This document shows positions 3,681 to 32,193 of a stretch of DNA of 64,000 nt, in pieces (the stretch's first letter is position 1; each line of letters starts with the position of its first letter). The stretch is from Verrucomicrobiota bacterium (GTDB lineage Bacteria > Verrucomicrobiota > Verrucomicrobiia > Limisphaerales > UBA1319). The notes beneath the pieces were generated by a model that ran no database searches, was not told the DNA's origin, and saw only the letters and a program-made list of their open reading frames with translations. Position numbers and translations under genes: made by a program. Location: NCBI GenBank assembly GCA_022711435.1, contig JAKLFB010000019.1, positions 23,521-87,520 of the forward strand. Reading direction: 5' to 3'.

Positions 3681-5582
3681 ATGAAACGTTTCCAACACCG
3701 CCGGCAGTTGCACGTGCTGGTCCTGATGTTGCTGGCCGGCCTGGGCCTGGCCTTCCGCCTGGTCCACCTCCACGTCATCCGCCACGAGGAGCTCACCATC
3801 AAGGCCGCCCAAAGCACCCAGCGCCAGTTCCTCCGCGAGCCCATCCGCGGCGAGATCCGCGACATCAAAGGCAACCTCCTCGCCATCAGCCGCCGCACCC
3901 TCAAGATCTGCGCCGATCCCACCCTCCTCTCCAATACCAATGTCCAGGACCGACGCCCTGAAGTGTGCCGCGCCCTCAGCCCCCTCCTTCAAATCGATCC
4001 GGCAGAGCTCTATCGCCAGCTCGAGCTCCGGCCCGCCTATCCCCTCCGCACCAATGACCACGGCCAGATCGTTCCCTGCCAATACGTCGTCCTCAAACGC
4101 AACTTCGACCCTGACCTCTGGCCCGCCCTGACCAACGCCATGCACCACCTGGATTTCGGCTTCAACCTCCAGGAGCTGCCCCGCCGCCACCGCCGCCATT
4201 TTTATAACCTCCGCCGTTTCGCCATCTTCAGCGAGGACGACCAGCTGCGCGAATACCCCCACCACACCCTCGCCAGCCAGATTGTCGGATACGCCGGCCT
4301 CGACCTCGATCCCGCCCGCCCCGTCGAAACCATCCTCGGCAAAGAGGGCATCGAGCTCACTCTCGATCATCTCCTCCGAGGGTTCCCCGGCTGGATCATC
4401 ACCGAACGCGACGTCCGCGGGCGCGAGGTCGTCGTCCACCGCAAGGTCGATGTCGCACCCCAGCCCGGCCACAACGTCGTCCTCACCATCGACCTCGGGC
4501 TCCAGAACATCCTCGAATCCGAGCTCCGCCAGGCCATGACCGCCTATGCGCCCACCAGCGTCTGCGGCATCATCGTCCGGCCCCGGACCGGCGAAATCCT
4601 CGCCATGGCAACCCTCCCCAGCTTCGATCCCAACCAGCCCGGCGCCTCCCCGCCCGGCCACCGGCGCAACCGTGCCGTGACCGAGATCGCCGAGCCCGGA
4701 AGCACCTTCAAACCGTTCGCCCTCGCCGCCGCCATCGAGTCCCGCCTCGCCTACCTCAACGAGCGCATCTTCTGCGAGAACGGCAGCTGGTGGTTCGCCG
4801 GTAAAATCCTCCGCGACCACGAGTCCTACGGCATCCTCACCGTCGAGCGCATCATCGCCAAATCCTCCAACATCGGTGTCGCCAAGATCGGCATCCGCCT
4901 CGGCCCGCTCCTCCTCCATGAGTTCATCCGCCGCTTTGGCTTCGGCGACCGCACCGGCATCGAGCTCCCTGGCGAGGTCCGAGGCATCGTCCACCCCGCC
5001 GACAAGTGGTCCCGGCTCTCCCTCTCCCGCATCCCCATCGGCCAGGGCATCGCCGTCTCCCCCCTCCAGCTCGTCATGGCCATGAGCGCCATCGCCAGCG
5101 AAGGACAGCTCATGAAACCCCGCCTCCTGGATCGCGTCGAGGACGCCCAGGGCCGCGTCATCATGAAGACCAGCCCCGAGGTCGTCCGCCAGGTTGTCTC
5201 CCCGGAAACCGCGCGCCTCGTCGTCCAAGCCCTCAAAGCCGTCGTCTCCCCCGAAGGCACCGGCGCCAAGGCGCAGCTCTCCTATTACAAAATTGCGGGC
5301 AAGACCGGCACCGCTGAAAAAGCGGGGCGCGGCGGTTACCAGGAGGGGAAATACTTCGCATCGTTTGTCGGGTTCTTCCCGGCCGACCAGCCTGAGCTCT
5401 GCATCCTCGTCGCCCTGGATGAGCCCCGGAAAAAGGACTACTACGGCGGCCAGACGGCCGGACCCGTGTTCCACAATGTCGCCGAGCGGGCGGCCCGCTA
5501 CCTGAGCCTGCCCCCCGATCTCGAGCCGCCCCCCGAGATCGCCGCCACCTCCCGCCCCACCTCCACCTCCTCTCGCCACTGA
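3681..5582 (+). CDS. ftsI: Peptidoglycan D,D-transpeptidase FtsI (class B PBP)
   Basis: N-terminal TM, then SxxK (GSTFKPF), SxN (KSSNIG) and KTG (GKTGTA) motifs. dcw position. Confidence 0.92.
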   Translation: MKRFQHRRQLHVLVLMLLAGLGLAFRLVHLHVIRHEELTIKAAQSTQRQFLREPIRGEIRDIKGNLLAISRRTLKICADPTLLSNTNVQDRRPEVCRALSPLLQIDPAELYRQLELRPAYPLRTNDHGQIVPCQYVVLKRNFDPDLWPALTNAMHHLDFGFNLQELPRRHRRHFYNLRRFAIFSEDDQLREYPHHTLASQIVGYAGLDLDPARPVETILGKEGIELTLDHLLRGFPGWIITERDVRGREVVVHRKVDVAPQPGHNVVLTIDLGLQNILESELRQAMTAYAPTSVCGIIVRPRTGEILAMATLPSFDPNQPGASPPGHRRNRAVTEIAEPGSTFKPFALAAAIESRLAYLNERIFCENGSWWFAGKILRDHESYGILTVERIIAKSSNIGVAKIGIRLGPLLLHEFIRRFGFGDRTGIELPGEVRGIVHPADKWSRLSLSRIPIGQGIAVSPLQLVMAMSAIASEGQLMKPRLLDRVEDAQGRVIMKTSPEVVRQVVSPETARLVVQALKAVVSPEGTGAKAQLSYYKIAGKTGTAEKAGRGGYQEGKYFASFVGFFPADQPELCILVALDEPRKKDYYGGQTAGPVFHNVAERAARYLSLPPDLEPPPEIAATSRPTSTSSRH

Positions 5583-5587
5583 CGCTT

Positions 5588-7072
5588 ATGCTCCTCCGCC
5601 ATCTTGCCGCCAGCCTCAACATCGTCCGCACTCAGGGCTCGCTCGATCGCGAGGTCCGCAGCCTCGCGCTCGACTCCCAGCGCACCGCATCCGGATCGGT
5701 CTTCGTCGCCCTACCCAACCCCAGCCCCCATTCCGGCGAGTCCATCCAGGAGGCCGTCGACCGCGGCGCGGTCGCCGTCGTGTGCCAGTGCCGCGGCGTG
5801 TTCGCGCCCCGTGCCACGGTCATCCAGGTCCCCGATGCCCGCGAGGCGCTCCTGCGCCTGGCCGAGGCCTTCTTCCAGCACCCCGGCGCCAAGCTCCAGA
5901 CCATCCATGTCGCCGGCGCCTCCGCAGCCGCTCCCGTCGCTTTCATCCTCCGCGAAATCCTCGAAGCCGCCGGTGATCGCACCGGCCTCATCAGCAGCAT
6001 CCACCACCAGTTGGGCGATCGGGTCCTCCCCGCCTGGTTCACCCCGCCCACCCCGCTCGAAACCCAGGCGCTCCTGGCCCAGATGGTCCGGATCGGTTGC
6101 CGGTTCTGCGTCCTCGAACAGCCCGCCGCCGCTCCCCACCTCCAAGGCATCGACGTCCTTCTCCAGCACCAGAAACCGGGATGGTTCGTTCCCGGTGCCA
6201 TCCCTCCCGTCTCTCCTCCTCAGCTGGGCCCCTCGATCGACCGCTACCGGACGCGGCAGGCCTCGCTCACTGTCCACCAGGTCCCACCTGCCCCCGCCCT
6301 GCCCGGCGCCCGCATCGGCCCCATCGAGACTCTCGTCAGCTACGGAGCCCGCCCTTGGCTCCGCCTCGAGGCCAGCTCCCTCACGCTCTCCCCCGGCGGC
6401 GCCCGGTTCCAACTCCATACGCCCGCCGCCCGCATGACATGCCGGCTCCCATCGCCCGGCCAGTCCCACGTCCAATACGCCCTCGCCGCCGCCGGCATCG
6501 CCCTCGCCCTTGGCGTCGATCCATCCATCGTCCGCCGCGCCTTGTGCAGCCTGCCTCCCGTGCCCGGACGGCTCGAGCCGGTCGATGCCGGCCAGCCGTT
6601 CTCCGTTCTCGTCGATCGGGCCCGGCGGCCCGATGACCTCCGCGATGCCCTCCAGTCCGCCCGCGCTTTCACCGCCGGCCGCCTCCTGCTCGCCACCGGC
6701 AGCCCCGGCGGATCCCCCCTCGAGGAACGCATCGCCCTGGGCGAAGTCGCCGCGCGAATCGCCGACCTCACCGTGCTGACCAGCGACAATTCGTCCAAGG
6801 AATCCCCCGATCTCATCGCCTGCCAGATCCTCGCCGGCTACCACCGGATCCGCTCCAACGACGTCGCGATCGAACACGACCGGCAGCAGGCTATCCGCCA
6901 GCTTATCCGCCAGGCCCGCCCCGGCGATACCGTCCTCCTCGCCGGCAAAGGCAACGAAACCATTCAGATCGACCCCGACACGCTCCTGCCCTTCGACGAC
7001 CGCGTCTTCGCCCGCGAGATGATCGAGGAGTCGGGCTTCGCGGTCCCTGCCCGACGCCACCGGCTGCCATGA
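5588..7072 (+). CDS. murE: MurE-like Mur-ligase family protein with degenerate catalytic motifs (positional murE)
   Basis: Full-length (494 aa) co-linear similarity to MurE: LALDS..SVFVAL, AVDRGAVAVV, PVPGRLEP, TVLLAGKG. However, the P-loop is VAGASAAAP, the DNPR motif is DNSS, and GCGGDRD is GSPGGSP. See findings. Confidence 0.75.
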   Translation: MLLRHLAASLNIVRTQGSLDREVRSLALDSQRTASGSVFVALPNPSPHSGESIQEAVDRGAVAVVCQCRGVFAPRATVIQVPDAREALLRLAEAFFQHPGAKLQTIHVAGASAAAPVAFILREILEAAGDRTGLISSIHHQLGDRVLPAWFTPPTPLETQALLAQMVRIGCRFCVLEQPAAAPHLQGIDVLLQHQKPGWFVPGAIPPVSPPQLGPSIDRYRTRQASLTVHQVPPAPALPGARIGPIETLVSYGARPWLRLEASSLTLSPGGARFQLHTPAARMTCRLPSPGQSHVQYALAAAGIALALGVDPSIVRRALCSLPPVPGRLEPVDAGQPFSVLVDRARRPDDLRDALQSARAFTAGRLLLATGSPGGSPLEERIALGEVAARIADLTVLTSDNSSKESPDLIACQILAGYHRIRSNDVAIEHDRQQAIRQLIRQARPGDTVLLAGKGNETIQIDPDTLLPFDDRVFAREMIEESGFAVPARRHRLP

Positions 7073-8487
7073 TGGATAACCGCCCGCTATCGTTCATCGT
7101 CGAGGGCAGCCAGGGCCGGCTCCTCCAGGGCGACCCCAGCTGGATGATCTCCGGCGTCTGCCTCGATTCCCGCCAGGTCCAGCCCGGCGATCTCTTCGTC
7201 GCCATCCAGGGCCCGCGCTTCGATGGCCACGCTTTCGTCGGGGAAGCCGGCCGCCGCCAGGCCGCAGCCGCCCTCCTCCATCGCACCCCCGCCGAGCCCC
7301 CCCCCACGCTGCCCGCGATCGTCTCCGTCGATAACACGCGCCTCGCCCTCGGGCGGCTGGCCTCCCGCTACCGCCAGGATTTCCAGCTGCCCGCCATCGC
7401 CGTCTGCGGTTCCAACGGCAAGACCACCACAAAGGATATCCTCGCCTCCATCCTGTCCCAGCGCTTCCTCACCCTCCGCAGCCCCGCCAGCTTCAACAAC
7501 GATATCGGCGTCCCCCTCACCCTCCTCGACCTTCACGCGAGCCACCAGGCCGCCATCCTCGAGGCCGGCACCAACCACCCCGGCGAGCTCCTGCCCCTCT
7601 TGTCCATGATCCGTCCGCGCTTCGGCATCCTCACCAGCATCGGCCGCGAACACCTCGAGTTCTTCGGCAGCCTCGAGGGCGTCATCGCCGAAGAAGCCGC
7701 CCTGGCCGCAGCGCTTCCCCATCACGGCCGGCTCTTCCTCCCCGCCGACCTCGCCGGGCTCGACTTGATCGCCTCGCGCGCTGCCGCACCTCTGACCCGG
7801 GTCGGCTGGGGCCCAGCCGCCGACTGGCAGGCCGCCGATGTCTCCATCGACTGGGCCGGCACCCGCTTCCGCATCCTGCAGCCCGAGGGCCCGTGGGCGG
7901 GATCCTACCACCTCCCCATCCCGGGGCGCCACCAGGCCATCAACGCGCTCCTGGCCATCGCGCTGGCCGCCGAGCTGGGCCTCACGCCCGAGGAGGCCCG
8001 CGCCGGCCTGGCCGCCTTCACCGCCCCTGCCATGCGCCTCCAGACCCACGAGCGCCGCGGCGTCCGGTTCCTCAATGACGCCTATAATGCCAACCCGGAC
8101 TCCACTCGCGCCGCTCTCGAAACACTCCGCTGCTTGCCCGCCCCCGGCCGGCGCATCGCTGTTCTCGGCGATTTCGCCGAGTTGGGGGATGCTGCCGAAT
8201 CCGCCCACCGCGAGACCGGCCGCCTCGCTGCCGGCCTCCAGATCGATCTCCTCGTCGCCGTCGGCGCCCACGCCTCCGTTACCGCCCAGTCCGCCCGCCA
8301 GCACGGCCTCGACAACGTCCGCGAGTGCGCCACGCTCGAGGACGCACGCTCGTGCCTGGGCAGCCTGCTCCGACCCGGCGACCTCGTCCTGCTCAAGGCC
8401 TCCCGCTCTGCCGGCCTGGAGCGGTTGCTGGATCCGATCCCCCCGCTCTCGGCCCATGGCCTGCCAACGCCCCCCTCCCAGCCCTGA
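7069..8487 (+). CDS. murF: UDP-N-acetylmuramoyl-tripeptide--D-alanyl-D-alanine ligase MurF
   Basis: Intact P-loop CGSNGKTTTKD, plus LEAGTNHPGEL, DAYNANPDS and LLKASRSAGLE. ATGA overlap with the upstream gene. Confidence 0.92.
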   Translation: MMDNRPLSFIVEGSQGRLLQGDPSWMISGVCLDSRQVQPGDLFVAIQGPRFDGHAFVGEAGRRQAAAALLHRTPAEPPPTLPAIVSVDNTRLALGRLASRYRQDFQLPAIAVCGSNGKTTTKDILASILSQRFLTLRSPASFNNDIGVPLTLLDLHASHQAAILEAGTNHPGELLPLLSMIRPRFGILTSIGREHLEFFGSLEGVIAEEAALAAALPHHGRLFLPADLAGLDLIASRAAAPLTRVGWGPAADWQAADVSIDWAGTRFRILQPEGPWAGSYHLPIPGRHQAINALLAIALAAELGLTPEEARAGLAAFTAPAMRLQTHERRGVRFLNDAYNANPDSTRAALETLRCLPAPGRRIAVLGDFAELGDAAESAHRETGRLAAGLQIDLLVAVGAHASVTAQSARQHGLDNVRECATLEDARSCLGSLLRPGDLVLLKASRSAGLERLLDPIPPLSAHGLPTPPSQP

Positions 8488-8493: not shown

Positions 8494-9648
8494 ATGCTGT
8501 TCTACCTCACCCAATACTGGCTCGAGCAACTCGGCGATTCAGACTGGGGCGAACGCCTCTCGGGGCTGCGCGTCTTTCGCTACATCACGTTCCGCAGCGC
8601 CGGCGCCGCCGTCACCGCCCTGGCTCTCAGCTGGTGGTGGGGACCGCGATTCCTCCGCACGCTGATCCGGCTGGGGGCCGTCCAGAATTACAGCGATCGC
8701 GCCCATCTCGCAGCCGCCCAGGACGGCCAATCCGCACCCCCCGCCCGCCGCGGCGTCCCTACCATGGGCGGCGTCCTCATCATCGCCGCTCTCGATGCCG
8801 CCTGCCTTCTCTGGGCCCAGTGGAACGCCCTCGTCATCCTCACCCTCCTCTCCGTCGTCGTCCTCGCCGGCCTCGGATTCTATGACGATTTCCTCAAGAT
8901 CACTCGGCAGAATCCCGAGGGCGCATCCCCGCGCCTGAAGCTCTGGGTCCAGTTCTCCCTGGCCGCCTTCATCGCCATCTACCTGTGGCTCCGCCCCACC
9001 ACCTCGACGCTCGTCACCGATATCATCATCCCCTTCTATAAACACCCCATCCTCGGCGGCGCTCTGTTCCTCGGCCTGGTCATCACGATCCTGAGCATCG
9101 TCGGCAGCTCCAACGCCGTCAACCTGACCGACGGGATCGACGGCCTCGCCATCGGCTGCACGCTCATCGTCGCCTTCGTCTTCGTCATCCTCACCTACAT
9201 CGCCGGGCATGTCCGGTTCGCCGAGTACCTCTGGGTCCCCTATGTCCCCGGCGCCGGAGAACTGACGGTCGTCTGCGCCGCCCTCATCGGCGCCGGCCTC
9301 GGCTTCCTCTGGTTCAACTGCCAGCCCGCCAGCGTCTTCATGGGCGACACCGGCAGCCTGGCCCTGGGCGGCGCCCTCGGCATCATCGCCGTCCTCATCC
9401 ACCAGCCTTTCATCCTCGTCCTCGCCGGCGGCGTCTTCGTGGCCGAAGGCGCCTCGGCCCTCGTCCAGCGCACCTGGTTCAAATACACGCGGATCCGATT
9501 CGGCCAGGGCGTCCGCGTCTTCCGTCGCGCGCCGCTCCATCACCATTTCCAGGCGCTGGGGTGGACGAATTCCCAGGTCGTCACCCGGTTCTATATCCTC
9601 GGCATCCTCTGCGCCGTCGTCGCGCTCAGCACCCTCAAGCTGCGATGA
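8494..9648 (+). CDS. mraY: Phospho-N-acetylmuramoyl-pentapeptide-transferase MraY
   Basis: Polytopic membrane protein with NAVNLTDGIDGLA, MGDTGSLALGG and HHHF motifs. Confidence 0.93.
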   Translation: MLFYLTQYWLEQLGDSDWGERLSGLRVFRYITFRSAGAAVTALALSWWWGPRFLRTLIRLGAVQNYSDRAHLAAAQDGQSAPPARRGVPTMGGVLIIAALDAACLLWAQWNALVILTLLSVVVLAGLGFYDDFLKITRQNPEGASPRLKLWVQFSLAAFIAIYLWLRPTTSTLVTDIIIPFYKHPILGGALFLGLVITILSIVGSSNAVNLTDGIDGLAIGCTLIVAFVFVILTYIAGHVRFAEYLWVPYVPGAGELTVVCAALIGAGLGFLWFNCQPASVFMGDTGSLALGGALGIIAVLIHQPFILVLAGGVFVAEGASALVQRTWFKYTRIRFGQGVRVFRRAPLHHHFQALGWTNSQVVTRFYILGILCAVVALSTLKLR

Positions 9649-10084
9649 ATCCGCCCGCGCGCATCCTCCCCTTCCCACCGCCTGGCCACCGCCGGATCGC
9701 GAGCCTTCGATCCGATTTTGCGGATTCGCACTTTACTCCTTGCACCGTGCCCGGTTCGTTGTTAGAAGCAGGAGCCAAGGCAGCCATGAAGGCGCCGGCG
9801 GCGGCGGTGGTGCTTTCGCACATGCGTTTCGGCCTGGATCGGATTCCTTTCGAACCCTTGCAGGATGGGCTTCCTCTTGGAGGCAGCCCCTCCGCGGCAG
9901 CTCATTCCAGGCCGTCACGGCGAATCCCGTCCGCCGCACCAGTTGCTGTGATCGCTCGCTCGCGCAATATTGTTCGACAGCCGACGTGGCAGCCATGGGC
10001 CGGTCGGTCCCGACCCCTTCGCGCCCGTCTTTCGGATCCGATACGCCAATCCCAACCCACATCTCTACACCCCCACATCCAACC

Positions 10085-10801
10085 ATGAACACTCCCAATC
10101 CATTGGTCCCCCAGGGTTCGCTCCTAGAAGAACACATGTCCAAGGGCAAATCCAACCTCTTCGTCGCGGTCTTCACGATCCTGGCGATCCACGTGGTCCT
10201 CTTCGCCGGCCTTCTCATGCAGGGCTGCAAACGAGAGAAGGCCGACACCTCGGTCGCGCGCACCCCGACGAATCCGCCCCCGATCAGCGCCTCCTACTAC
10301 ACCCCCACCAGCCCCCCGCCCTCCACGCCCGCCACCTACACGCCCGCCGCCCTTCCGACCGTCGCCTCCAATGAGGTCGCCATTGCTTCCACCCCACCGC
10401 CCGCGACCGAACCCGCTTTCACCGAATACAAGGTCGTTCGCGGCGACTCGCTCTATAAAATCGCCAAGGACCATGGCATCACCCTCCCCGCCCTCCAGAA
10501 GGCCAATCCCGATCTCGATCCCCGCCGCCTGCAGCCCGGACAGGTCATCCAGATCCCCCCGCCCGAATCGGCCGCAGCCCCCTCAGCCCCCGAAGGCGCC
10601 CTCGCCGCCGACGGCTCCACTTCCTACACCGTCAAAGCCGGCGACAACCTGACCCGCATCGCTAAAAACCACGGCATCTCTGTCACGACATTGAAAGCCG
10701 CCAACAACCTGCGCACCGATCGCATCCAGGTCGGCCAAAAGCTCTCGATCCCAGCACCCACTCCCTCCGCCGCCCCGGCGCCCGGCGCTGCGCCGCGGTG
10801 A
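10085..10801 (+). CDS. Membrane-anchored protein with two LysM peptidoglycan-binding domains
   Basis: ATG 10085 inside ORF 9740..10801. TM segment LFVAVFTILAIHVVLFAGLLM and a Pro-rich linker. Two LysM repeats: YKVVRGDSLYKIAKDHGITLPALQKAN...GQVIQIP and YTVKAGDNLTRIAKNHGISVTTLKAAN...GQKLSIP. Confidence 0.8.
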   Translation: MNTPNPLVPQGSLLEEHMSKGKSNLFVAVFTILAIHVVLFAGLLMQGCKREKADTSVARTPTNPPPISASYYTPTSPPPSTPATYTPAALPTVASNEVAIASTPPPATEPAFTEYKVVRGDSLYKIAKDHGITLPALQKANPDLDPRRLQPGQVIQIPPPESAAAPSAPEGALAADGSTSYTVKAGDNLTRIAKNHGISVTTLKAANNLRTDRIQVGQKLSIPAPTPSAAPAPGAAPR

Positions 10802-10834: not shown

Positions 10835-11989
10835 ATGAAAACCTCCATCTGGCTGTTGATCGTGAGCGCCGGGGCTCTCCTGGCCTTGGGCTTGGTCATG
10901 CTCTACAGCGCCGAAATGGCCCAGGCCGGCCAGCCCCTCTTCCGCCAGCAGCTCATGTGGTGCGGCATCGGTCTCGCCGCTGCCGCCGCCGCGGCGGCCA
11001 TCGTCGATTATCGATGGCTCAAACACCCCGTGATCTGCGGCGCCGGCTTCCTTCTCGCTGCCCTCGCCCTCGCCCTGGTCCTCTGGTCGCCCCTCGGCGT
11101 TTCCAAGCTCGGCGCCACTCGATGGCTCCGCGTCGGCTTCGCCATGTTCCAGCCTTCCGAGCTGGCCAAGGTCGTCGCCATCGTGTGCCTCGCCGCTTAC
11201 GCCGAATACAATCGGCGCCGGATGCGCAATTGGCGGTGGGGCCTCCTCTACCCCGGCCTTGGCGTCTCCATCCTCCTGCTCCTCATTTTTCGTGAGCCGG
11301 ACTGGGGCGCAACCCTTCACCTGGCGGCCGCCGCCGCCGGCCTGCTCTATTTCGCAGGCGCCCGCGTCTCCTATATCCTCGTCCCTTCTCTGATCGGCCT
11401 GGTCGTCCTGGCGTTCCTTCTCCAAAAAGATCCGGTCCGGCGGGAGCGGGTCGAGGCGTGGCTCGATCCCGAAGCCCACCAGCAGACTGCCGGCCACCAG
11501 CAATGGCGCGGCATCCTCGCCTTCGGATCCGGCGGAGCCTACGGCCTGGGCTTGGGCCACAGCCGCCAGAAACTCGGCTTCCTGCCGGAGCACCAAACCG
11601 ATTTCCTCTACCCCATCGTGGGCGAAGAACTCGGGCTGATCGGATCCCTGGCCGTCCTGGGCCTCCAGTTGACTCTCATCGCCAGCGGCTTCCTCATCTC
11701 CCGCCGCGCAAGCGACTGGTTCGGCTTCTATCTCGGCAGCGGCCTCACGTTGTTGATCGGCATCCAGGCCCTGCTCAACATGGCCGTCGTCACCGCCGTC
11801 CTCCCCAACAAGGGCATCCCCCTGCCCCTCCTGAGCTACGGCGGCTCCAACCTCGTCATGGTCCTCGCCAGCCTCGGCCTGCTCCTCAGCATCGCCCGCC
11901 GCGGCACCAGCCAGCCGCTGCCCATCCCCGAAACCACCCGCGTCCTGGTCGATCAGGAGGAGCACCTCCCCAACCCCCAGCCCGCCTGA
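10835..11989 (+). CDS. ftsW: SEDS-family peptidoglycan glycosyltransferase FtsW
   Basis: Polytopic protein with FQPSELAKV, PEHQTDFLY and LPNKGIPLPLLSYGGSN. Confidence 0.9.
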   Translation: MKTSIWLLIVSAGALLALGLVMLYSAEMAQAGQPLFRQQLMWCGIGLAAAAAAAAIVDYRWLKHPVICGAGFLLAALALALVLWSPLGVSKLGATRWLRVGFAMFQPSELAKVVAIVCLAAYAEYNRRRMRNWRWGLLYPGLGVSILLLLIFREPDWGATLHLAAAAAGLLYFAGARVSYILVPSLIGLVVLAFLLQKDPVRRERVEAWLDPEAHQQTAGHQQWRGILAFGSGGAYGLGLGHSRQKLGFLPEHQTDFLYPIVGEELGLIGSLAVLGLQLTLIASGFLISRRASDWFGFYLGSGLTLLIGIQALLNMAVVTAVLPNKGIPLPLLSYGGSNLVMVLASLGLLLSIARRGTSQPLPIPETTRVLVDQEEHLPNPQPA

Positions 11990-13224
11990 TGGCCGACACC
12001 CCTCCCCATCCCAATGTCGCCATCGCCTGCGGCGGCACCGGAGGGCACCTCTTCCCCGGGATCGCCGTCGCCGATGCCCTCGATTCCATCGGCTGCCATA
12101 TCCGCCTGCTGGTCTCGCCCAAAGAGATCGACCAGGCCACTCTCCGCAGCCAGTCACCATGGCAGATCCTCACGCTCCCGGCCCGCGCCCAGTCCTCCCT
12201 GGGATCCCTCGGCTTCGTGGCCCAATTGGCTCGCAGCTTCTCCCTCGCCCGCCGCTGCTTCCTCGCCGAACCGCCCCACGCCGTCCTCGGCATGGGCGGC
12301 TTCTCCAGCTTCGCTCCCATGGCCGCCGGACGCACCCTCCGAGCCGCCCTCGTCCTCCACGAAGCCAATGCCATCCCCGGCCGCGCCAACCGCTGGATCG
12401 CCCGCTGGTCCGACCATGCCTACGTCCATTTCCCGTCCGCCGGACGGCGGCTCCGCTGCCGCCAAGTCACCTGCGCCGGCATGCCCCTCCGATCCCGCTT
12501 GCAGCCCCAGGATCCATCCGCCTGCCGCCTCATGCTCGGCCTGCACCCCGATCATCCCACCCTCCTCGTCGTCGGCGGCAGCCAGGGCGCCACACCCGTC
12601 AACCAGATCCTCATCCGCTCCATCCCCCTGCTCGCCCGCCACCTGCCCAGCCTCCAGTTCCTTCATCTCACCGGCCCGGCCGATGCCGAGGCCGTCCGCT
12701 CCGCCTACGCCGCCCACGGACGCCGAGCCATCGTCCGCCCTTTCCTGACGGAAATCGAGCTGGCTCTCAACGCTGCGTCCGTCGCCATCAGCCGCGCCGG
12801 AGCTTCCGCGCTCGCCGAATTCGCCGCCCTCCGCCTGCCCGCGATCCTGATCCCCTATCCGCATGCCGCGGATAACCACCAGCACTACAACGCGCTCGCT
12901 TTTGCCGACTGCGGCGCCGCCCGCCTTCTGGCCCAATCCTCCGCCTCCCCGGAGCAGGTCGCCCGTTGGGTTCTCGAGCTGGCGGTCGACTCGCCCGCTC
13001 GCCGCGCCACCCAGAGCGCCCTCGGCCGCTGGCATCGACCTCAGGCTGCGCTCGATATCGCCGCCGGCATCGTCCAGCTCATCCGCGACCGATTCCACAT
13101 CCAGATCCCTCGCGCCACGCCCGCTCTCGACGACGGCTCGAACGCTCCCTTCCAATCCGCGCTTGCCCCGTCTCGTCTCCCTGCAGCTCCGCGCGCCCCC
13201 AAGGAGGTGTCGCTGCCCCGATGA
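11989..13224 (+). CDS. murG: UDP-GlcNAc:lipid I N-acetylglucosamine transferase MurG (with ~50-aa Pro/Ala-rich C-terminal tail)
   Basis: ATG 11989 overlaps the ftsW stop (TGATG). Contains CGGTGGHLFPGIAVA and SRAGASALAEFAALRLPAILIPYPHAADNHQ. Confidence 0.9.
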   Translation: MADTPPHPNVAIACGGTGGHLFPGIAVADALDSIGCHIRLLVSPKEIDQATLRSQSPWQILTLPARAQSSLGSLGFVAQLARSFSLARRCFLAEPPHAVLGMGGFSSFAPMAAGRTLRAALVLHEANAIPGRANRWIARWSDHAYVHFPSAGRRLRCRQVTCAGMPLRSRLQPQDPSACRLMLGLHPDHPTLLVVGGSQGATPVNQILIRSIPLLARHLPSLQFLHLTGPADAEAVRSAYAAHGRRAIVRPFLTEIELALNAASVAISRAGASALAEFAALRLPAILIPYPHAADNHQHYNALAFADCGAARLLAQSSASPEQVARWVLELAVDSPARRATQSALGRWHRPQAALDIAAGIVQLIRDRFHIQIPRATPALDDGSNAPFQSALAPSRLPAAPRAPKEVSLPR

Positions 13225-14204
13225 CCTCTCCAGGCGCACCATCCCCCACCGCATCCCCGGCCCTGTCGATGGCCGCCCGCGCTGATCTCTACCGCCAGCT
13301 CGCCTCGCTTCTTTCCCCCGGCTCCACCGCGCGGTTCGATGAACCCTTGTCGCGCCATACCACCTGGGGCGTCGGCGGCCCGGCCGACCTCTATGTCGAG
13401 CCCGGCTCCGAATCCGATCTCCTGGCCGCCCTCCGCTTCGCTCGCCTCCACCAGATCCGCCTCCGCGTCATCGGCAGCGGATCGAACCTGCTCGTCCTCG
13501 ACCATGGATTCCGCGGGATCATCGTCTGCCTCCGCCATCCCTGCTTCCGCTCGATCGAGCCTGCCCGGGACCAGTTGCGCTGCGGGGCCGGCGCGCCCCT
13601 CGCCGCCATCGTCCGCGAGGCCGCCCGGGCCCGCCTGGGCGGGCTGGAGTTTCTCGAAGGCATCCCCGGCACCGTCGGCGGCGCCCTCCGCATGAACGCC
13701 GGCGCCATGAACCGGTCCTTCTTCGATGTCCTCCTTCGAGTCCGATTCATGAGCCTGGACGGGGCCGTGTCGGAGATCGCCGCCGCCGAGCTCCAGGCCG
13801 GCTATCGCTCCTGCCCGTTCTTCGAGACGCATATCGCCCTCTCCGCGACACTCCAGGCGGCCCCTTCCCCGCCCGAAACCATCCGCCGCCTCATCGCCCT
13901 ATACCGCCGGCGCCGCCAGGCCCAGCCCGCGGGCCGGAGCGCAGGCTGCACGTTCAAAAACCCCGGCGCCATCTCCGCCGGTCAGCTCATCGATGAGCTG
14001 GGCCTCAAAGGCGCCCGAGTCGGCCACGCCGTCGTCTCCACCGTCCACGCCAACTTCATCCTCAACGACGGCGGCGCCACCGCCCGCGACATCCTCGCCT
14101 TGCTCGATCGGATCCGCAGCGAGGTCCGGTCCCGTCGCGGCATCCAGCTCGAACCCGAAGTCCAGATCATCGGCGGCGAGCCCGCCCCTGCCCCCATGCC
14201 ATGA
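13221..14204 (+). CDS. murB: UDP-N-acetylenolpyruvoylglucosamine reductase MurB
   Basis: ATG 13221 overlaps the murG stop (ATGA). Contains HTTWGVGGPADLYVEP, IGSGSNLLV, GIPGTVGGALRMNAGA and SAGCTFKNP. Confidence 0.9.
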   Translation: MTSPGAPSPTASPALSMAARADLYRQLASLLSPGSTARFDEPLSRHTTWGVGGPADLYVEPGSESDLLAALRFARLHQIRLRVIGSGSNLLVLDHGFRGIIVCLRHPCFRSIEPARDQLRCGAGAPLAAIVREAARARLGGLEFLEGIPGTVGGALRMNAGAMNRSFFDVLLRVRFMSLDGAVSEIAAAELQAGYRSCPFFETHIALSATLQAAPSPPETIRRLIALYRRRRQAQPAGRSAGCTFKNPGAISAGQLIDELGLKGARVGHAVVSTVHANFILNDGGATARDILALLDRIRSEVRSRRGIQLEPEVQIIGGEPAPAPMP

Positions 14205-15133
14205 CCGCCCCCCTCCACATTGTCGTGATGCACGGCGGGCCTTCGGCCGAGCGCGATGTCTCGCGCCGCTCCGGCCAGGCGGTGGCTAGCGCCCTGCGAT
14301 CGCTCGGCCACACGGTCGACGAGCTCGATCCTGCGCCCGGCGCCTGGACCTTGCCCCCGTCCACCGACGCCGTCTTCCTCGCCTTGCATGGCGCCTACGG
14401 CGAAGACGGCGCCATCCAGCAGGAGCTCGAGCAACTCGGCGTCCCTTACACCGGGTCTGGACCCGACGCGAGCCGGATCGCGTTCGACAAGGCCCTTGCC
14501 AAGGAGAAGTTCCTTGCCGCCGGCGTCCCCACCGCGCGCTTCGTGCTCCTCCACGATCCCGGCGCCCCTTGGCCCCCTCGCTGGTCCCCCCCTGTCGTCG
14601 TCAAACCCGCCCGCCAGGGATCCAGCGTCGGGCTCCAGTTCGTTCGGCGCCCCGACGATTGGCCCCAGGCCCTCTCCCATGCCTTCGAGTTTGACTCGAA
14701 GGTCCTGATCGAGGAGTTCGTCGCCGGCCGCGAAACCACCGTCGGCATCCTCGGGGATCGGACCCTGCCCGTCGTCGAGGTCCGCCCCCGCCAGGGCCAC
14801 TACGATTTCCAAAACAAATACACCCCCGGCGCGACGGAATATTTCTGCCCCGCCCCTCTGGACCCGGACCTCGCCCTCCGCATCCGGCAGGCCGGTCTCG
14901 CCGCTCACCGCGCCGTCGGCGCCCGCGATTACAGCCGCGTCGATGTCCTACTTACCCCGGACGGCCAGCCTGTTGTTCTCGAAGTCAACACGCTGCCCGG
15001 GATGACGGAAACCAGCCTCCTGCCCAAGGCCGCCGCCGCCGCCGGCATCTCCTACCCAGCCCTCTGCCAAACCATGATCCAGCTCGCCATCGACCGCCCC
15101 AGCCGCCCTCGCATCCCTCAATCCCAATCCTGA
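14201..15133 (+). CDS. ddl: D-alanine--D-alanine ligase
   Basis: HGGPSAERDVS, LHGAYGEDGAIQ and RVDVLL...LEVNTLPGMT. ATGA overlap with murB. Confidence 0.92.
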   Translation: MTAPLHIVVMHGGPSAERDVSRRSGQAVASALRSLGHTVDELDPAPGAWTLPPSTDAVFLALHGAYGEDGAIQQELEQLGVPYTGSGPDASRIAFDKALAKEKFLAAGVPTARFVLLHDPGAPWPPRWSPPVVVKPARQGSSVGLQFVRRPDDWPQALSHAFEFDSKVLIEEFVAGRETTVGILGDRTLPVVEVRPRQGHYDFQNKYTPGATEYFCPAPLDPDLALRIRQAGLAAHRAVGARDYSRVDVLLTPDGQPVVLEVNTLPGMTETSLLPKAAAAAGISYPALCQTMIQLAIDRPSRPRIPQSQS

Positions 15134-15145: not shown

Positions 15146-16108
15146 ATGCCCTGGTTCACGTTCCGAAACCGACGCCTGCGACGAGATAAAACCCTCGACG
15201 TGAAAGCGCGCCAGCGATCCCGCCACGCCCAGCGCCTCCGCTTTCTCCTCGCCGCCCTCACCGTCTGCTTCGTCACCTTCATCGCCCTGGTCGTCCTCTG
15301 GCGCGGCGGCGAGTGGATCGTTCAAAACGGCTTCATCCACCATCGCGCCTTCCGCATTCGCCAGGTCCAAACCCGCACCGACGGCCTCCTCTCGCCCGAC
15401 CAGATCCGCTCCTGGTCCGGCGCCCAAATCGGCGATCCCCTGTTCGTCGTCGACCTCAACCGCATCAAGCGCAACCTCGAGCTCGTCCCGCTCGTCCGCG
15501 AAGCCCGCGTCGAACGCGTCTTCCCTGACACGCTCCGCATCACCATCGCTGAGCGCCAGCCCTGCGCCCGCGCCCTCGTCATCGTCCCTCAGCCCGCCCC
15601 CAACACCTATTCCACCGATGTTTATCTCCTCGATTCGGACGGATACGTGATGGTCCCCCTGGAGCCGGGCGACCCGCATGCGATCCAGCCTCCCGCCGCC
15701 GACGCCCTCCCCAATCTCATCGGGCTCCAGCGCGGCGACCTCCGCCCCGGCTGGCCCGCCGTTTCACCCTCCGTCTACGCCGCCCTCCAGCTGATCCAAT
15801 CGTTCGAACGCTCCCCCATGTTCGGATTGGTCGAGCTGGAGGCCATCGACCTCTCGCACCCCGGCCTGCTCCACGTCACCACACGCCAGGGCACATCCAT
15901 CGCCTTCAGCCTCGACCGCCTCGAGCCCCAGCTCCGCCGCTGGCGATCCATCCACGATCTGGGCCGCCGCCTCGGCAAATCCATCGCCACGATCGACCTC
16001 TCCGTCACCAACAACGTCCCGGTCACCTGGATCGCACCCGAGCCCCATCCCCCATCCCACCCGACCGCGCCCCTCCGCACCACCTCATCCCGACGCCGGC
16101 ATGTTTAG
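15146..16108 (+). CDS. ftsQ: Cell division protein FtsQ (POTRA domain)
   Basis: N-terminal TM (LLAALTVCFVTFIALVVLW) and a POTRA-like segment IRQVQTRTDGLLSPDQI...VERVFPDTLRITIAERQP. Position before ftsA. Confidence 0.8.
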   Translation: MPWFTFRNRRLRRDKTLDVKARQRSRHAQRLRFLLAALTVCFVTFIALVVLWRGGEWIVQNGFIHHRAFRIRQVQTRTDGLLSPDQIRSWSGAQIGDPLFVVDLNRIKRNLELVPLVREARVERVFPDTLRITIAERQPCARALVIVPQPAPNTYSTDVYLLDSDGYVMVPLEPGDPHAIQPPAADALPNLIGLQRGDLRPGWPAVSPSVYAALQLIQSFERSPMFGLVELEAIDLSHPGLLHVTTRQGTSIAFSLDRLEPQLRRWRSIHDLGRRLGKSIATIDLSVTNNVPVTWIAPEPHPPSHPTAPLRTTSSRRRHV

Positions 16109-17300
16109 CTCGCCCACCATCGTCGTCGGCCTCGAAATCGGCACCTCCAAAATCTGTGCCATGGTCGGCGAAGTCGACAAGTCCGGCGCCCTCCGCCTCA
16201 TCGGCGTCGGCCAGGCCAAATCCCGCGGCGTCCGCAAAGGCGAGATCGTCGATGCCAGCCCCGTCGAGGAGGACGTCCGCAAGGCGATCGCCGATGCCGA
16301 GGAGATGGCCGACGTCGAGATCCGCAGCGTGTTCCTCGGCATCACCGGCGATCATATCCTCGGATCCAATAACCGCGGCGTCCACACCGTCCTCTCCCAG
16401 GACCGCGAAATCGATGCTGATGACGTCCAGAAGGTCACCCAGAACGCCCGCGCCGCCACCCTCCCACCCGGCCACCACATCATCCATGCCATCCGCCAAT
16501 ACTTCGTCGTCGATGGCCAGGAAGGTGTCGTCGATCCCGTCGGATTCGCCGGCCGCCGCCTCGAAGTCGATCTCCACCTCATCCACGGCAATCTCGATCG
16601 GCTCCGCAACTCCATCAACCTCGTCAACACGCTCCAGCTCGAGGTCGATAACATCGTCTTCAACGGCCTCGCCGCCAACCTCGCCCTCCTCTCGCCCGAG
16701 GAGAAGGACCTCGGCGCGCTCGTCATCGACCTCGGAGCCGGCACCACCGATTTCGTCCTCTGCCGGCAAGGTGTCATCCGACACTCCGGCGTCCTCGCCG
16801 TCGGCGGCGACCACGTCACCAACGACCTCGCCATCGGCCTGAAGATCCCCCTTCACCGCGCCGAATGGCTCAAGACCAACCACGGCTCCGCCCTCGCCGA
16901 TCCCCAGGCCCGCGGCCAATCCATCCCCGGCGCTCCCGATGCCGTCTCCCCCGAAAAACCGGTCAACCTCGAACACCTCCAGCGCATCATGTCCGTCCGG
17001 CTCGAGGAGGTGTTCACGCTCATCGCCCGCGAGCTCGGCGCCGCCGGCCTCCTCGACCACCTCCATGCCGGCGTGTTCCTCTGCGGCGGAGGCAGCCGAA
17101 CCCCCGGCCTCGCTGCCCTCGCCGAGCAGATCTTCCAGTCCCCCGCCGTTCTCGGCCATGCCCACGCCGCCAGCGGCCTCCAGTCCACGCTCGACCAACC
17201 TGAGTTCGCTGTCCCTATTGGCCTGGTCAAATTCGGCGCCATGAACATCAAACAGCAGCGCGATCGGCGCCGCCCCTGGTGGCGCCCCCCCTGGAGTTGA
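16101..17300 (+). CDS. ftsA: Cell division protein FtsA
   Basis: Actin-fold phosphate motifs VGLEIGTSKICAMVGE and VIDLGAGTTDF, plus CGGGSRTPGL. Basic C-terminal tail. Confidence 0.92.
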   Translation: MFSSPTIVVGLEIGTSKICAMVGEVDKSGALRLIGVGQAKSRGVRKGEIVDASPVEEDVRKAIADAEEMADVEIRSVFLGITGDHILGSNNRGVHTVLSQDREIDADDVQKVTQNARAATLPPGHHIIHAIRQYFVVDGQEGVVDPVGFAGRRLEVDLHLIHGNLDRLRNSINLVNTLQLEVDNIVFNGLAANLALLSPEEKDLGALVIDLGAGTTDFVLCRQGVIRHSGVLAVGGDHVTNDLAIGLKIPLHRAEWLKTNHGSALADPQARGQSIPGAPDAVSPEKPVNLEHLQRIMSVRLEEVFTLIARELGAAGLLDHLHAGVFLCGGGSRTPGLAALAEQIFQSPAVLGHAHAASGLQSTLDQPEFAVPIGLVKFGAMNIKQQRDRRRPWWRPPWS

Positions 17301-17306: not shown

Positions 17307-18653
17307 ATGGAAACACCCCCCTGCCCCGACACCGCCCCCCCGACCTGCGCCGATAGCCAACTCGCCCAACGCACCCCCGCCCTCACCTTCATCGGCCTCG
17401 GCGGCGCCGGCGTCAACATCGCCCAGTTCCTCGCCCGCGAGGCTCTCCCCGGCGTCCGGTTCGCCGCCGTCAACACCGACGCCCAAAGCCTCGCTCCCCT
17501 CCAGCAGATCGAGACCCACCTCCTCGCTGCCGAAATCACCCGCGGCCTCGGCGCCGGCGGCGACCCCGACCTCGGCCGCCAGGCCGCCGAAAAGGACGCC
17601 GCCGCTCTCGCCCGCCTCTGCGCCGGCGCCGACCTCGTCTTCGTCGCCGCCGGCCTCGGCGGCGGCACCGGCACCGGCGCTGCCCCCGTCCTCGCGCGCA
17701 TCGCCCGCGAATCCGGCGCCCTCGTCCTGGCCTTCGCCATCCTCCCCTTCGACTGCGAAGGCAAACGCCGCCAAAACCAGGCCCTCGCCGGCCTCCAGTC
17801 TCTCAAGTCCGCCGCCGACGGCGTCATCTGCCTCCCCAACCAGCGCCTCAACCGCATTGCCGACGAGCATACCCACCTCGCCGACACCTTCCGGATCAGC
17901 AACGAATTCCTCGCCCAAACCATCCGCGGCATCTGGCGCATGCTCCATCGCCCCGGCCTCATCCACACCGACTTCAGCCACCTCCGCGCCGCCCTCCAGG
18001 GCCGCCACACCGAAAGCGCCTTCGCCACCGCCCAGGCCGCCGGGCCCAACCGCGCTCGCGAAGCCACCGAACTGCTCCTCGCCAGCCCCCTCCTCGAAGA
18101 CCCCGCCCTCCTCGCCCACGCCGATACCGCCCTCGTCACCATCGCTGCCCATAACCTCACCCGCGGCGAAATCGACCGCGTCCTCGAACCCGTCAACCGC
18201 CAGTGCCAGAACGCCCACATCATGCTCGGCGCCGTCCTCGATGAATCCCTCGGCGACCGCATCGAAATCAACCTCATCGCCTCCCGCCGCGAGCCCGCCA
18301 GCGCCGACCCCAGCCGCCTCAACGCACCCCCCAGCTCCCCGCTGCCCCCCAGCCAGGAACACCTCCACCTCGATCTGGCCGGCTTCTCCGATGCACCCGA
18401 ATCCCGGCGCTCCCACCCCGAGTGCCTCCCCCCACCGCCCAGCCTCGCACCCGAAACCACCCGCCAGCTCTACCACCAAAAACACAGTGCCGGCTCCCGG
18501 CTCCGCAAGGTCATCCCCCCCCGCTTCCGCCAGCAGCAGCTCCCGCTCGAAATCATCTCCAAAGGCCGCTTCGAAAAAAGCGACCCCACCATCCGCCACG
18601 GCGAAGACCTCGATATCCCCACCTTCAAACGACGCGGGATCCCCCTCAATTGA
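17307..18653 (+). CDS. ftsZ: Cell division GTPase FtsZ (divergent T7 loop)
   Basis: Tubulin signature GLGGGTGTGAAPV, AVNTDAQ, and C-terminal peptide DLDIPTFKRRGIP. The T7 loop reads HTDFSH instead of NxDxxD. Confidence 0.92.
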   Translation: METPPCPDTAPPTCADSQLAQRTPALTFIGLGGAGVNIAQFLAREALPGVRFAAVNTDAQSLAPLQQIETHLLAAEITRGLGAGGDPDLGRQAAEKDAAALARLCAGADLVFVAAGLGGGTGTGAAPVLARIARESGALVLAFAILPFDCEGKRRQNQALAGLQSLKSAADGVICLPNQRLNRIADEHTHLADTFRISNEFLAQTIRGIWRMLHRPGLIHTDFSHLRAALQGRHTESAFATAQAAGPNRAREATELLLASPLLEDPALLAHADTALVTIAAHNLTRGEIDRVLEPVNRQCQNAHIMLGAVLDESLGDRIEINLIASRREPASADPSRLNAPPSSPLPPSQEHLHLDLAGFSDAPESRRSHPECLPPPPSLAPETTRQLYHQKHSAGSRLRKVIPPRFRQQQLPLEIISKGRFEKSDPTIRHGEDLDIPTFKRRGIPLN

Positions 18654-19924: not shown

Positions 19925-21052
19925 GTGAACGCCCGCATCGCCAGGGTCGATGCCTTCCCGGTTTGCTACCCCGTGGCCGGGCGCTTCAAGTTCTTCGAGG
20001 GCCCCCATGGCCGCGCAGGCCGATATTCTGTCCTTGTCAAATTGACGGCCGACAGCGGCGCCGTCGGCTGGGGCCAATGCGTCCCCTCCCCCCGCTGGAG
20101 CTACGAGACGCTCGAATCGGTCTACTACACCATCACCCGCTACCTCGCACCGTTGCTCGTCGGCGCCAACCCGCACGATCACGAGGCCATCTTCCAGGCG
20201 ATGAACCGCGAGATCGCCCCCTCCTTCTCGACCGGCCAGCCCGTCTGCAAAGCCGGCATCGACCTCGCCCTCTTCGACCTCGCCGGCAGGCTCCTCGGGC
20301 AAAACGCCGCTCAAGGCTGGAGCCGCCGCGGACTAGGCCGGCTCTCCATCAGCTACACCCTCAATCCCAAATCGATCGACGACATCGATCCCATGGTCGC
20401 CGAGGGCCGCGCCAAAGGCTACCGCCATTTCAACGTCAAAATCGCTCCCGATCTCGCATTCGATCTCGAGCTCTGCCGGCGCGTCAAGAAGCTCGTCCCC
20501 GACGGATTCCTCTGGGCCGATGCCAACGGCGGCTACGACGAGGCCGCCGCCCTCGAGGCCGCCCCCAAGCTCGCCGATATCGGCGTCGCCGTCCTCGAAC
20601 AGCCCTTGCCCGCCAACCGCCTCGAAGGCTATCGCCGCCTCAAACAACAAGCCGCCCTCCCCATCCTCATGGACGAGGGCATCGTCTCCTCCGTCGAGCT
20701 CGAGGAGTTCATCAAGCTCCGGCTCCTCGACGGCGTCGCCATGAAACCCGCCCGCTGCGGCGGACTGGCCGAGTGCCGCCGCCAGATCGAAATCGTCCTC
20801 CGCGAAGGACTGATGTTCCTCGGCAGCGGCCTTTCCGATCCCGACCTCGCCCTCGCCGGATCCCTCATCCTCTATGGCGCCTACGGCCTCGCTTACCCCG
20901 CCGCTCTCAACGGATGCCAGTTCCTCCAGGGAAGCATCCTCGCCCAGCCCTTCGCCGTCCAAGACGGATTCCTGCCCGTCCCCACCGGCCCCGGCCTCGG
21001 CGCCCAAGTCGACGAGGCAAAGATCCCTCAGTACCTCGTGCGCGATATCTGA
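19925..21052 (+). CDS. Enolase-superfamily enzyme (mandelate racemase/muconate lactonizing family)
   Basis: GTG start. Metal-ligand pattern DANGGY / LEQP / MDEG, plus KPARCGG. Substrate not assignable. Confidence 0.75.
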   Translation: MNARIARVDAFPVCYPVAGRFKFFEGPHGRAGRYSVLVKLTADSGAVGWGQCVPSPRWSYETLESVYYTITRYLAPLLVGANPHDHEAIFQAMNREIAPSFSTGQPVCKAGIDLALFDLAGRLLGQNAAQGWSRRGLGRLSISYTLNPKSIDDIDPMVAEGRAKGYRHFNVKIAPDLAFDLELCRRVKKLVPDGFLWADANGGYDEAAALEAAPKLADIGVAVLEQPLPANRLEGYRRLKQQAALPILMDEGIVSSVELEEFIKLRLLDGVAMKPARCGGLAECRRQIEIVLREGLMFLGSGLSDPDLALAGSLILYGAYGLAYPAALNGCQFLQGSILAQPFAVQDGFLPVPTGPGLGAQVDEAKIPQYLVRDI

Positions 21053-24437: not shown

Positions 24438-24621
24438 CGGATGCTCCTCTGAAATCGCTCGGCGGCCCGGCCCCGGCCGCCCGCCTGCAGCAAAATCCCG
24501 GATCGCACGCTTGTCAAGCACTCCTCGACTCCCGCCGCAACGCCCTGCGCCCCGGCGATCGCCCCCCCGGACCACCGGCGGGCTTGCCCCGGCTCCCCCC
24601 ACCCGCTAGATATTACCCCTG

Positions 24622-31940: not shown

Positions 31941-32104
31941 GACTCAGGCAAAAAGGTTGAGCCTGCCGCCTCCCCCAGGCAACCTCAAAGACCGTCCTCC
32001 TCCGGCTGGAACCGCCCCGCATGCCGCTCCCCGGAACCCCGTCAGCTCGGGAAAAAGGTTGCGCGCGCGCCATTCCAGGGGCATCCTATTTCCGTCATTC
32101 AGGC

Positions 32105-32193
32105 GGAGAGATGGCTGAGTGGTTTAAAGCACACGCCTGGAGAGCGTGCGTGCCTAAAAAGCACCGGGAGTTCGAATCTCCCTCTCTCCGCCA
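32105..32193 (+). tRNA. tRNA-Ser (anticodon GGA), class II with long variable arm, CCA encoded
   Basis: Acceptor GGAGAGA/TCTCTCC. Anticodon stem CACGC/GCGTG with loop CTGGAGA. Variable arm CGTGCCTAAAAAGCACC. T arm GGGAG-TTCGAAT-CTCCC. Discriminator G followed by CCA. Confidence 0.9.

Follow-up and report, generated by a model that had tools for sequence, protein, structure and literature searches.

The Mur ligases MurC to MurF are antibiotic targets and, to our knowledge, are considered essential without exception. Plants have a MurE homologue that serves a structural purpose in place of peptidoglycan ligation: PAP11 is described as a MurE-like, structural subunit of the plastid-encoded RNA polymerase (PDB 8R6S, 8XZV, 9EPC). 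In the MurE-MurF chimera of Bordetella pertussis (PDB 8F5D), both halves of which are active enzymes, the MurE C-terminus covers a hydrophobic patch at the N-terminus of MurF, and the MurE C domain forms, with the first two MurF domains, a hub that binds MurC and MurD (PMC10214165). Within the Planctomycetes-Verrucomicrobia-Chlamydiae (PVC) bacteria, murC, murD and murE are all essential in Verrucomicrobium spinosum, and a PVC-wide survey of 2025 found the genes of the division and cell wall (dcw) cluster highly conserved in Verrucomicrobiota and reported that the planctomycete lineage has lost many cytoplasmic peptidoglycan genes (PMC12283558). Here we describe a full-length MurE homologue of 494 amino acids (5588..7072, + strand, ATG start), termed murE*, in a 64,000-nucleotide stretch of DNA from a Verrucomicrobiota bacterium of the Limisphaerales (assembly GCA_022711435.1, contig JAKLFB010000019.1, positions 23,521 to 87,520; hereafter the window).

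murE* shares with canonical MurE (EC 6.3.2.13; E. coli 1E8C, M. tuberculosis 2WTZ, Fontisphaera persica) the dcw slot between ftsI and murF, which is the orthologous murE position, and a predicted three-domain fold. Its closest canonical relative is F. persica MurE (44-45% identity). It differs from canonical MurE in lacking the Walker-A Lys/Thr pair, the Mg-binding His, the carbamylated Lys, the DYAH and GGxRD motifs and Arg416. PAP11, the top Foldseek match to the predicted structure (E 7.8e-39, template modelling (TM) score 0.78), is the closest precedent for a MurE kept for structure. PAP11 is eukaryotic, sits in a transcription complex and still has the P-loop GTNGKTT, whereas murE* is bacterial, lies in a dcw operon beside murF and has lost its P-loop. 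The C domain that contacts MurF in B. pertussis is present in MurE*, and murE* is translationally coupled to murF; the murE* half of such a pair would, unlike its B. pertussis counterpart, be structural only. No description of a dead bacterial MurE was found in the literature on Mur ligase pseudoenzymes, on Limisphaerales peptidoglycan or on Mpl with loss of murC, murD or murE.

We propose, with a probability of roughly 0.55, that murE* is a murE orthologue turned pseudo-enzyme and kept for a non-catalytic role in precursor assembly, likeliest as a partner of MurF. Three observations carry the pseudo-enzyme part of this proposal: homology to MurE with loss of essential residues, purifying selection measured in one orthologue pair, and a dead state that extends across diverged species.

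Active site and predicted fold of MurE*

The original prediction, made by eye from the sequence, held that the gene at the murE position had kept the Mur-ligase scaffold and lost every catalytic motif that could be checked. In a MAFFT alignment with E. coli K-12 MurE and 20 canonical verrucomicrobial MurE proteins, all six motif substitutions that it listed proved correct. The P-loop GTNGKTT reads AGASAAP (residues 110-116), within a degenerate Walker-A segment VAGASAAAP (residues 108-116, nt 5909..5935, + strand) that replaces the (V/I)TGTNGKTT of E. coli and M. tuberculosis MurE. MEVSSH has become LEQPAA, DYAHTPD has become DRARRPD, and GCGGDRDKGKR has become GSPGGSPLEER; DNPR reads DNSS and GKGHE reads GKGNE. 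A scan of the whole 494-residue protein found no GK[TS], as had been claimed, and neither the alignment nor the hidden Markov models placed a canonical P-loop, GGDRD or DNPR anywhere in it.

The word "every" was too strong, since a second set of functional residues is retained. Residues are numbered here as in the E. coli literature; their positions were verified on the K-12 sequence, which runs one residue higher. Of seven catalytic or DAP-binding residues examined, six are lost: the P-loop Lys119 and Thr120, the Mg-binding His210 (Gln212 in the window protein), the carbamylated Lys224 (whose column is a gap) and the diaminopimelate (DAP)-binding Arg389 and Arg416 (S376 and S403). The UDP-side motifs DSR (which reads DSQ) and DGH are also altered. 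Kept are the Mg-binding Glu182 (E177), Asp413 and Asn414 (D400/N401), Glu468 (E457), residues D343 and R381 of the window protein and the GKG of GKGHE. The C domain retains the blocks VPGRLE, GQPF.V.VD, TSDN, GDTVLLAGKG and PFDDR, and it is also where DRAR stands for DYAH and where the two arginines are missing. The P-loop GxxGK[TS], the set of Mg and carbamyl-Lys ligands and the DAP-binding set that mark a MurE ligase are thus absent as sets. Judged from its residues, MurE* would be incapable of ATP-dependent ligation of the canonical kind.

The possibility that a P-loop is masked by a frameshift or an error of sequencing was considered and ruled out. Sixteen contigs of independent origin (NCBI, JGI, ENA and Logan samples) encode the identical 494-residue protein, among them DAOOSY010000006.1 of the MAG GCA_035390025.1, to which the analysis assigned the window, and the motif is missing throughout the family described below.

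Profile scores agree with this. Only Mur_ligase_C among the Pfam models is above threshold (71.9 bits); Mur_ligase_M reaches 21.3, under its cut-off of 24, and the N-terminal Mur_ligase model has no match in the protein. With the NCBIfam murE model TIGR01085 the protein reaches 255.3 where 257.3 is required, and with the equivalog models it stays far short, at 249 where 373-476 is required. The AlphaFold2 model has a mean predicted local distance difference test (pLDDT) score of 85 and a predicted TM-score of 0.85. Confidence is high across the C domain, the first half of the central domain and most of the N domain (where pLDDT is mostly 83-96 per ten-residue block, with one block of 65 at residues 41-50); at residues 196-224 pLDDT falls below 50. 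Foldseek matched it to MurE structures with E values of 1e-33 to 1e-39, with TM-scores of 0.75-0.80 to closed or ligand-bound MurE (M. tuberculosis, S. aureus, E. coli 1e8c) and of about 0.60 to apo or fragment-bound E. coli structures. MurE* is therefore predicted to retain the three-domain Mur-ligase fold.

Selection and family-wide recurrence

The ratio of non-synonymous to synonymous substitution rates (dN/dS) was calculated by the Nei-Gojobori method for one orthologue pair, the window and locus L015 (a GTDB species representative, CAYWIM010000030.1). The two MurE* proteins are 93% identical, with zero indels and zero stops. Over the whole gene, 70.5 synonymous and 41.5 non-synonymous differences give a dN/dS of 0.196 (binomial p against neutrality 4e-15), a value bracketed by those of the neighbouring genes, of which ftsW is lowest (0.07) and murF highest (0.38). 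The ratio is 0.00 in the N domain (residues 1-100, 5588..5887, + strand), where there are 0 non-synonymous and 10 synonymous changes, and 0.17 in the first half of the central, ATPase domain (central-a, residues 101-185). It rises to 0.52 in the second half (central-b, residues 186-325, 6143..6562, + strand), a segment with 14% proline that also contains the sites of the lost Mg-binding His and carbamylated Lys, and is 0.09 (0.094) in the C domain (residues 326-494, 6563..7069, + strand). murE* is thus under purifying selection, chiefly in its N and C domains, and central-b is relaxed.

The loss is not peculiar to the window. The best 120 database matches include six distinct clusters, at 90% identity, from which these motifs are likewise missing, and an exhaustive profile search of 1.84 billion representatives, combined with a motif scan, added at least 22 further 50%-identity representatives. 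The resulting set of at least 29 divergent representatives was compared with 20 canonical relatives. The P-loop Lys is present in 0/29 family members, where it is replaced by R (14), A (4), Q (4), H (2), N (2) and others including G; the Mg-binding His and the carbamylated Lys are each present in 2/29, and Arg389 in 5/29. All four are present in 20/20 canonical proteins. Arg416 is kept in 12 of the 29, Glu182 in 28, and Asp357, Arg395, the DNP of DNPR and GKG are also kept in the family. DYAH gives way to other sequences, of which D[GR]A[R..] is the commonest. Recurrence in 29 divergent members and in none of the 20 canonical relatives confirms, at the level of sequence comparison, that the dead-motif pattern is beyond chance.

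Mean pairwise identity within the family is 39% in the N domain, 39% in central-a, 22% in central-b and 43% in the C domain, compared with 50%, 66%, 48% (47.5%) and 65% among canonical MurE. Dozens of residues are invariant across the family, including VPGRLE, GQPF, GDTVLLAGKG and PFDDR. Length is 481-523 amino acids in 28 of the 29 representatives and 452 in the other, and members whose start is in hand are full-length. No frameshift, stop or truncation was found in the window or in L001-L012, L014, L015, L106, L295, L296, L298 and L301. Scans of GTDB genomes with the single protein recovered L015 and distant MurE, and an alignment-based scan recovered at least one more MurE* genome, L106; the MurE*-specific pattern GQPFxVxVDRAR picked out L298, L301 and the planctomycete cases discussed below.

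In a neighbour-joining tree of MurE the MurE* proteins are monophyletic in 200/200 bootstraps. Together with two more GTDB genomes, the 29 representatives make up a single clade that falls within Limisphaerales-type MurE, on branches about 2-3 times longer than those of canonical MurE. Position, predicted fold and phylogeny clearly mark the gene as the murE orthologue. MurF identity between MurE* lineages is 46-66%, which makes the dead state an old one. An unconstrained frame of 1.5 kb (500 codons) could not have stayed open over such divergence, which argues for selection on murE*. The original prediction of a retained pseudo-enzyme in preference to a decaying pseudogene therefore holds up: dead motifs coincide with purifying selection, and intact frames of about 500 amino acids occur in 12 sampled loci and the 29 database representatives. 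The 494-residue frame itself, its ATGA coupling to murF and third codon positions as G/C-rich as those of the neighbours (G+C fraction 0.83) are likewise as first read. What had been framed as one gene is instead a whole family, in whose clusters MurD is dead or deleted and murC is missing.

Related degeneration is seen in planctomycetes. MurE homologues from metagenome-assembled genomes (MAGs) of Pirellulales, Planctomycetaceae and Thermoguttaceae (L299, L304, L306, L307, L308) show the same change of DYAH to DRAR, and most have dead C-domain motifs. The P-loop is dead in L304, L306 and L307, and its Lys and Thr are kept in L299 and L308. Their gene contexts, often fragmentary, differ from that of murE*. 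Since these proteins branch with canonical Pirellulales MurE, their degeneration was independent and convergent, which hints at a recurrent evolutionary path in PVC bacteria. The convergent DYAH to DRAR change suggests a repeatable route of fold stabilisation once the nucleotide site is abandoned.

Cluster content, role of MurE* and tripeptide supply

Canonical Limisphaerales clusters have the order ftsI-murE-murF-mraY-murD-LysM-ftsW-murG-murC-murB-ddl (L013, L095-L105, L107, L110, L114). In MurE* clusters the order is ftsI-murE*-murF-mraY-...-ftsW-murG-murB-ddl in 10/10 sampled lineages with a contig that runs past murF, and the MurF motifs are intact throughout. The window follows this arrangement on the + strand. 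murF (7069..8487) overlaps murE* by the ATGA at 7069-7072. It is intact, as had been noted, with all three Pfam Mur domains, a TIGR01143 score of 370 bits (cut-off 288.6) and the canonical motifs GSNGKTTTK, EAGTNHPGE and DAYNANP. It is followed by mraY (8494..9648; Pfam Glycos_transf_4) and, after a spacer of 487 nt, by the gene for a LysM-domain protein (10136..10801; Pfam and locus comparison), which in canonical relatives is also present, after murD. murG (11989..13224) and murB (13221..14204), both assigned by Pfam, come further downstream.

No murC lies between murG and murB in any MurE* locus whose contig reaches that junction. In the window the 3' end of murG overlaps the start of murB, leaving no room for murC at its canonical Limisphaerales site. 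A DNA pattern for the Limisphaerales MurC motif AGMHGKTT gave matches that, among those listed, were mostly from Acidobacteriota. The original prediction had advised a search for an intact murE in the rest of the genome; within the 64 kb there is none: phmmer with intact MurE and MurF against all six-frame open reading frames (ORFs) returned only murE* and murF, and no other Mur ligase.

The murD position takes three forms. It is empty in the window, L015, L011/12, L106 and L296. In L008 and L009 it holds ORFs of 162/163 amino acids, which were considered as MurD remnants and rejected: they have no detectable similarity to MurD and resemble only each other and the spacers of L011 and L106. In L010, L295 and L298 it holds a full-length, catalytically dead MurD, with an altered P-loop and loss of the Mg-binding Glu and His and of the NDSKATN motif. 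The P-loop of this MurD* reads GTHGKRT in L010 (7885-9459), GTNGKGT in L295 (14133-15626), where LEVSS has also become LQVTP and DHLDR has become DDPAN, and GTNGRST in L298 (6049-7593), where NDSKATN has become DDHRAET. The MurD* of these three deep lineages is a candidate second pseudo-enzyme in the same operon.

Within the mraY-LysM spacer of the window, tblastn with MurD or MurD* residues ~393-426 gave matches of 57-71% identity over 14-28 amino acids (E 0.004-0.014 in a small database). The match recurs in L015, L011 and L012, and its strand and its position within MurD are the same as in the window. Weak as this evidence is, 9726..9815 (+ strand) is probably what is left of the 3' end of a lost murD. 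MurD, once dead, was often deleted, and MurE* is present in every such sampled lineage. At the level of the cluster, this shows that steps two and three of stem-peptide assembly were switched off together; step one probably was too. The surviving enzymes are those that act before the MurC, MurD and MurE steps (MurB) and after them (Ddl, MurF, MraY, MurG).

Between the window and L015 the fastest-evolving dcw genes, by dN/dS, are murF (0.38) and murB (0.33), and ftsW, mraY and ftsI lie at 0.07-0.15. These rates could reflect somewhat relaxed constraint on the remaining cytoplasmic steps.

How might a dead MurE remain useful? Strong purifying selection on the N and C domains of a protein with a dead active site suggests a non-catalytic role, as scaffold or regulator. 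We suggest that ATP-dependent ligase chemistry was lost in a Limisphaerales-related clade in which the protein itself was retained by purifying selection, so that murE* is what remained when the clade as a whole gave up the MurD and MurE steps. Its conserved C-terminal domain could then serve as a structural partner or docking hub for MurF, and its N and C domains might still hold a ligand resembling a UDP-N-acetylmuramic acid (UDP-MurNAc) peptide. The former MurD and MurE steps, and probably that of MurC, would be supplied from elsewhere in the genome or by salvage. The version centred on MurF is preferred because the MurE C-terminus sits on a MurF patch in B. pertussis, because the MurE C domain acts there as a hub, and because of the ATGA coupling. 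Decay of murD to a weak relic, or its disappearance, in the same lineages provides an internal control.

Several points weigh against this proposal. The binding of MurF is drawn by analogy with the B. pertussis complex and that of a ligand from which domains are conserved, and murF has the highest dN/dS of the cluster, which is not what would be expected of a tightly co-adapted pair. The AlphaFold2 model leans on a sequence alignment dominated by canonical MurE. No newly family-specific conserved residue that would mark a new site was found among the 29 members, which show three conservative changes only; there is thus no sign of a re-invented active site. The MurE* clade is recovered in a tree of FtsI, MurF, MraY, FtsW and MurG, with weak support (91/200). 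The absence of murC, murD and a second murE holds for the cluster and the 64-kb window. In addition, L117 and L125, which are Opitutales with canonical MurE, also have no murC in the cluster; murC can therefore sit outside it in other Verrucomicrobia, and its absence here is suggestive only.

The alternative that survives best is that murE* acts as a sensor or regulator and not as a passive scaffold: without catalysing anything, it would bind UDP-MurNAc-peptide, DAP or a muropeptide and so tune MurF, MraY or the divisome. The two conserved domains are indeed those that bind ligands in MurE (UDP-MurNAc-peptide in the N domain, the amino acid in the C domain), and D400/N401/P and the GKG of the DAP pocket are mostly kept, with R416 in 12/29. 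However, the window protein is altered at the UDP-side DSR and DGH motifs and at both DAP-binding arginines, and pocket residues differ between lineages, which disfavours one conserved ligand. We regard this role as a minority possibility.

It is less probable again, and in our view unlikely, that the frame is kept open only for the sake of the essential downstream genes, through translational coupling to murF or avoidance of Rho polarity, with the protein itself irrelevant. The ATGA overlap, the place of murE* mid-way in a long co-directional operon and the spacer-like, relaxed central-b segment would all fit. Yet such a constraint would select against stops and frameshifts and not against missense changes, and the N and C domains are at dN/dS 0 and 0.09, with dozens of residues that never vary among family members. 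To meet such a need a large in-frame deletion would have sufficed, yet nearly all members keep the full length.

That MurE* is still an enzyme, a ligase or transferase, is quite improbable. To add the third residue or another moiety, it would have to bind its nucleotide at a non-canonical site or draw its energy from a different source, for instance an activated peptide or an aminoacyl donor. The three-domain fold, the kept Mg-binding Glu, D343, R381, DNP and GKG, and the concentration of constraint in the N and C substrate-binding domains would agree with this, as would the facts that a third stem residue is still required and that MurF is intact. On the other hand, the P-loop Lys is lost from all 29 members with varying replacements (R, A, Q, H, N, G), and no residue consistently takes the place of the lost Mg-binding His, carbamylated Lys or Arg389. 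New family-specific conserved residues are lacking, and MurD, the source of the substrate, is dead or absent. A plain decaying pseudogene, recently deprived of function and open only as a matter of time, is largely refuted and very improbable, for although the catalytic motifs are destroyed, central-b is proline-rich, poorly modelled and relaxed, and the NCBI pipeline labels one variant 'hypothetical protein', the departure from neutrality, the intact ORFs in 12 loci and 29 deeply diverged representatives, and the decay or loss of murD in the same clusters all speak against it.

Returning to murE* as a retained pseudo-enzyme, its carriers probably build or obtain their stem peptide by a non-standard route. 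UDP-MurNAc-tripeptide may come from unlinked replacement ligases, from an Mpl-type ligase acting on salvaged or otherwise-made tripeptide, or from an undescribed route. The Mpl-type option fits exactly the set of surviving genes. We entertain, tentatively and as a view that is on balance doubtful, a broader scenario: a clade of apparently free-living, polysaccharide-degrading Verrucomicrobiota would have abandoned de novo assembly of the stem tripeptide (MurC gone, MurD and MurE dead; MurB, Ddl, MurF, MraY, MurG, FtsW and FtsI retained) and would rely on an Mpl-type ligase to attach L-Ala-D-Glu-DAP, scavenged or made in another way, or on undescribed ligases, MurE* being a structural remnant needed by MurF or a Mur complex.

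A MurE that is dead yet under selection, in clusters where MurD is dead or deleted, would imply that a Mur ligase can do non-catalytic work within the machinery that makes peptidoglycan precursors in bacteria. The long-suspected 'Mur complex' would thereby gain support from an unexpected side, and a non-standard supply of stem tripeptide would come to light. This runs counter to the view of MurC to MurF as essential and of dcw genes as highly conserved in Verrucomicrobiota. There is also a practical consequence for annotation. Several family members (P0124, P0130, P0134, P0139, P0284) are labelled as active MurE ligase by JGI/IMG, and NCBI labels others (P0121, P0137) 'hypothetical protein' or 'Mur ligase family protein'. 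Because of such automatic MurE labels, peptidoglycan synthesis would be mistaken for complete in metabolic reconstructions based on these MAGs, and given the differing database labels, reconstructions will disagree with one another.

Other features of the window

The remaining dcw genes of the window are in place. ftsI, a class B penicillin-binding protein (3681..5582, + strand; Pfam PBP_dimer and Transpeptidase), lies directly upstream of murE* and is itself preceded by mraZ, a hypothetical gene, rsmH and ftsL. ftsW (10835..11989, + strand; Pfam) follows the LysM gene, and ddl (14201..15133, + strand; Pfam), ftsQ (15146..16108, + strand), ftsA (16101-17300) and ftsZ (17307-18653) follow murB. 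The cluster is thus complete apart from murC and murD.

Directly after ftsZ lies a gene of the enolase superfamily (MR_MLE, MLE subgroup; 19925-21052, + strand). It is under all NCBIfam cut-offs, with best matches to models for muconate cycloisomerase, OSBS and dipeptide epimerase; no NCBIfam model above cut-off identifies it as an L-Ala-D/L-Glu epimerase, which would have been a clue to recycling. Further downstream, an ORF of 629 amino acids (24610-26499, + strand) has good coding statistics, no Pfam family and only sub-threshold NCBIfam hints of TPR and AbrB-like domains.

The window as a whole (1-64000) shows a strong strand asymmetry. GC skew at third codon positions is about -0.5 in + genes and about +0.45 in - genes, so that the + strand is C-rich regardless of gene orientation, with an overall GC skew of -0.2 to -0.36 across most of the window. 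Skew due to replication is usually far weaker than this. It is the C-rich strand that carries the dcw operon. The bias was considered as the sole cause of the murE* substitutions and found insufficient, since neighbouring genes on the same strand retain their motifs.

The segment from 32000 to 42000 departs from this composition: its GC is lower (0.57-0.62) and the skew nearly vanishes. A tRNA-Ser(GGA) (32105-32193) marks its start, and it encodes an S8 subtilase of 1292 amino acids (35018-38896), which has Ig/cadherin-like domains, as well as a CAP-domain protein (39877-42060); no integrase was seen in it. It may be a recently acquired island that does not yet carry the strand bias.

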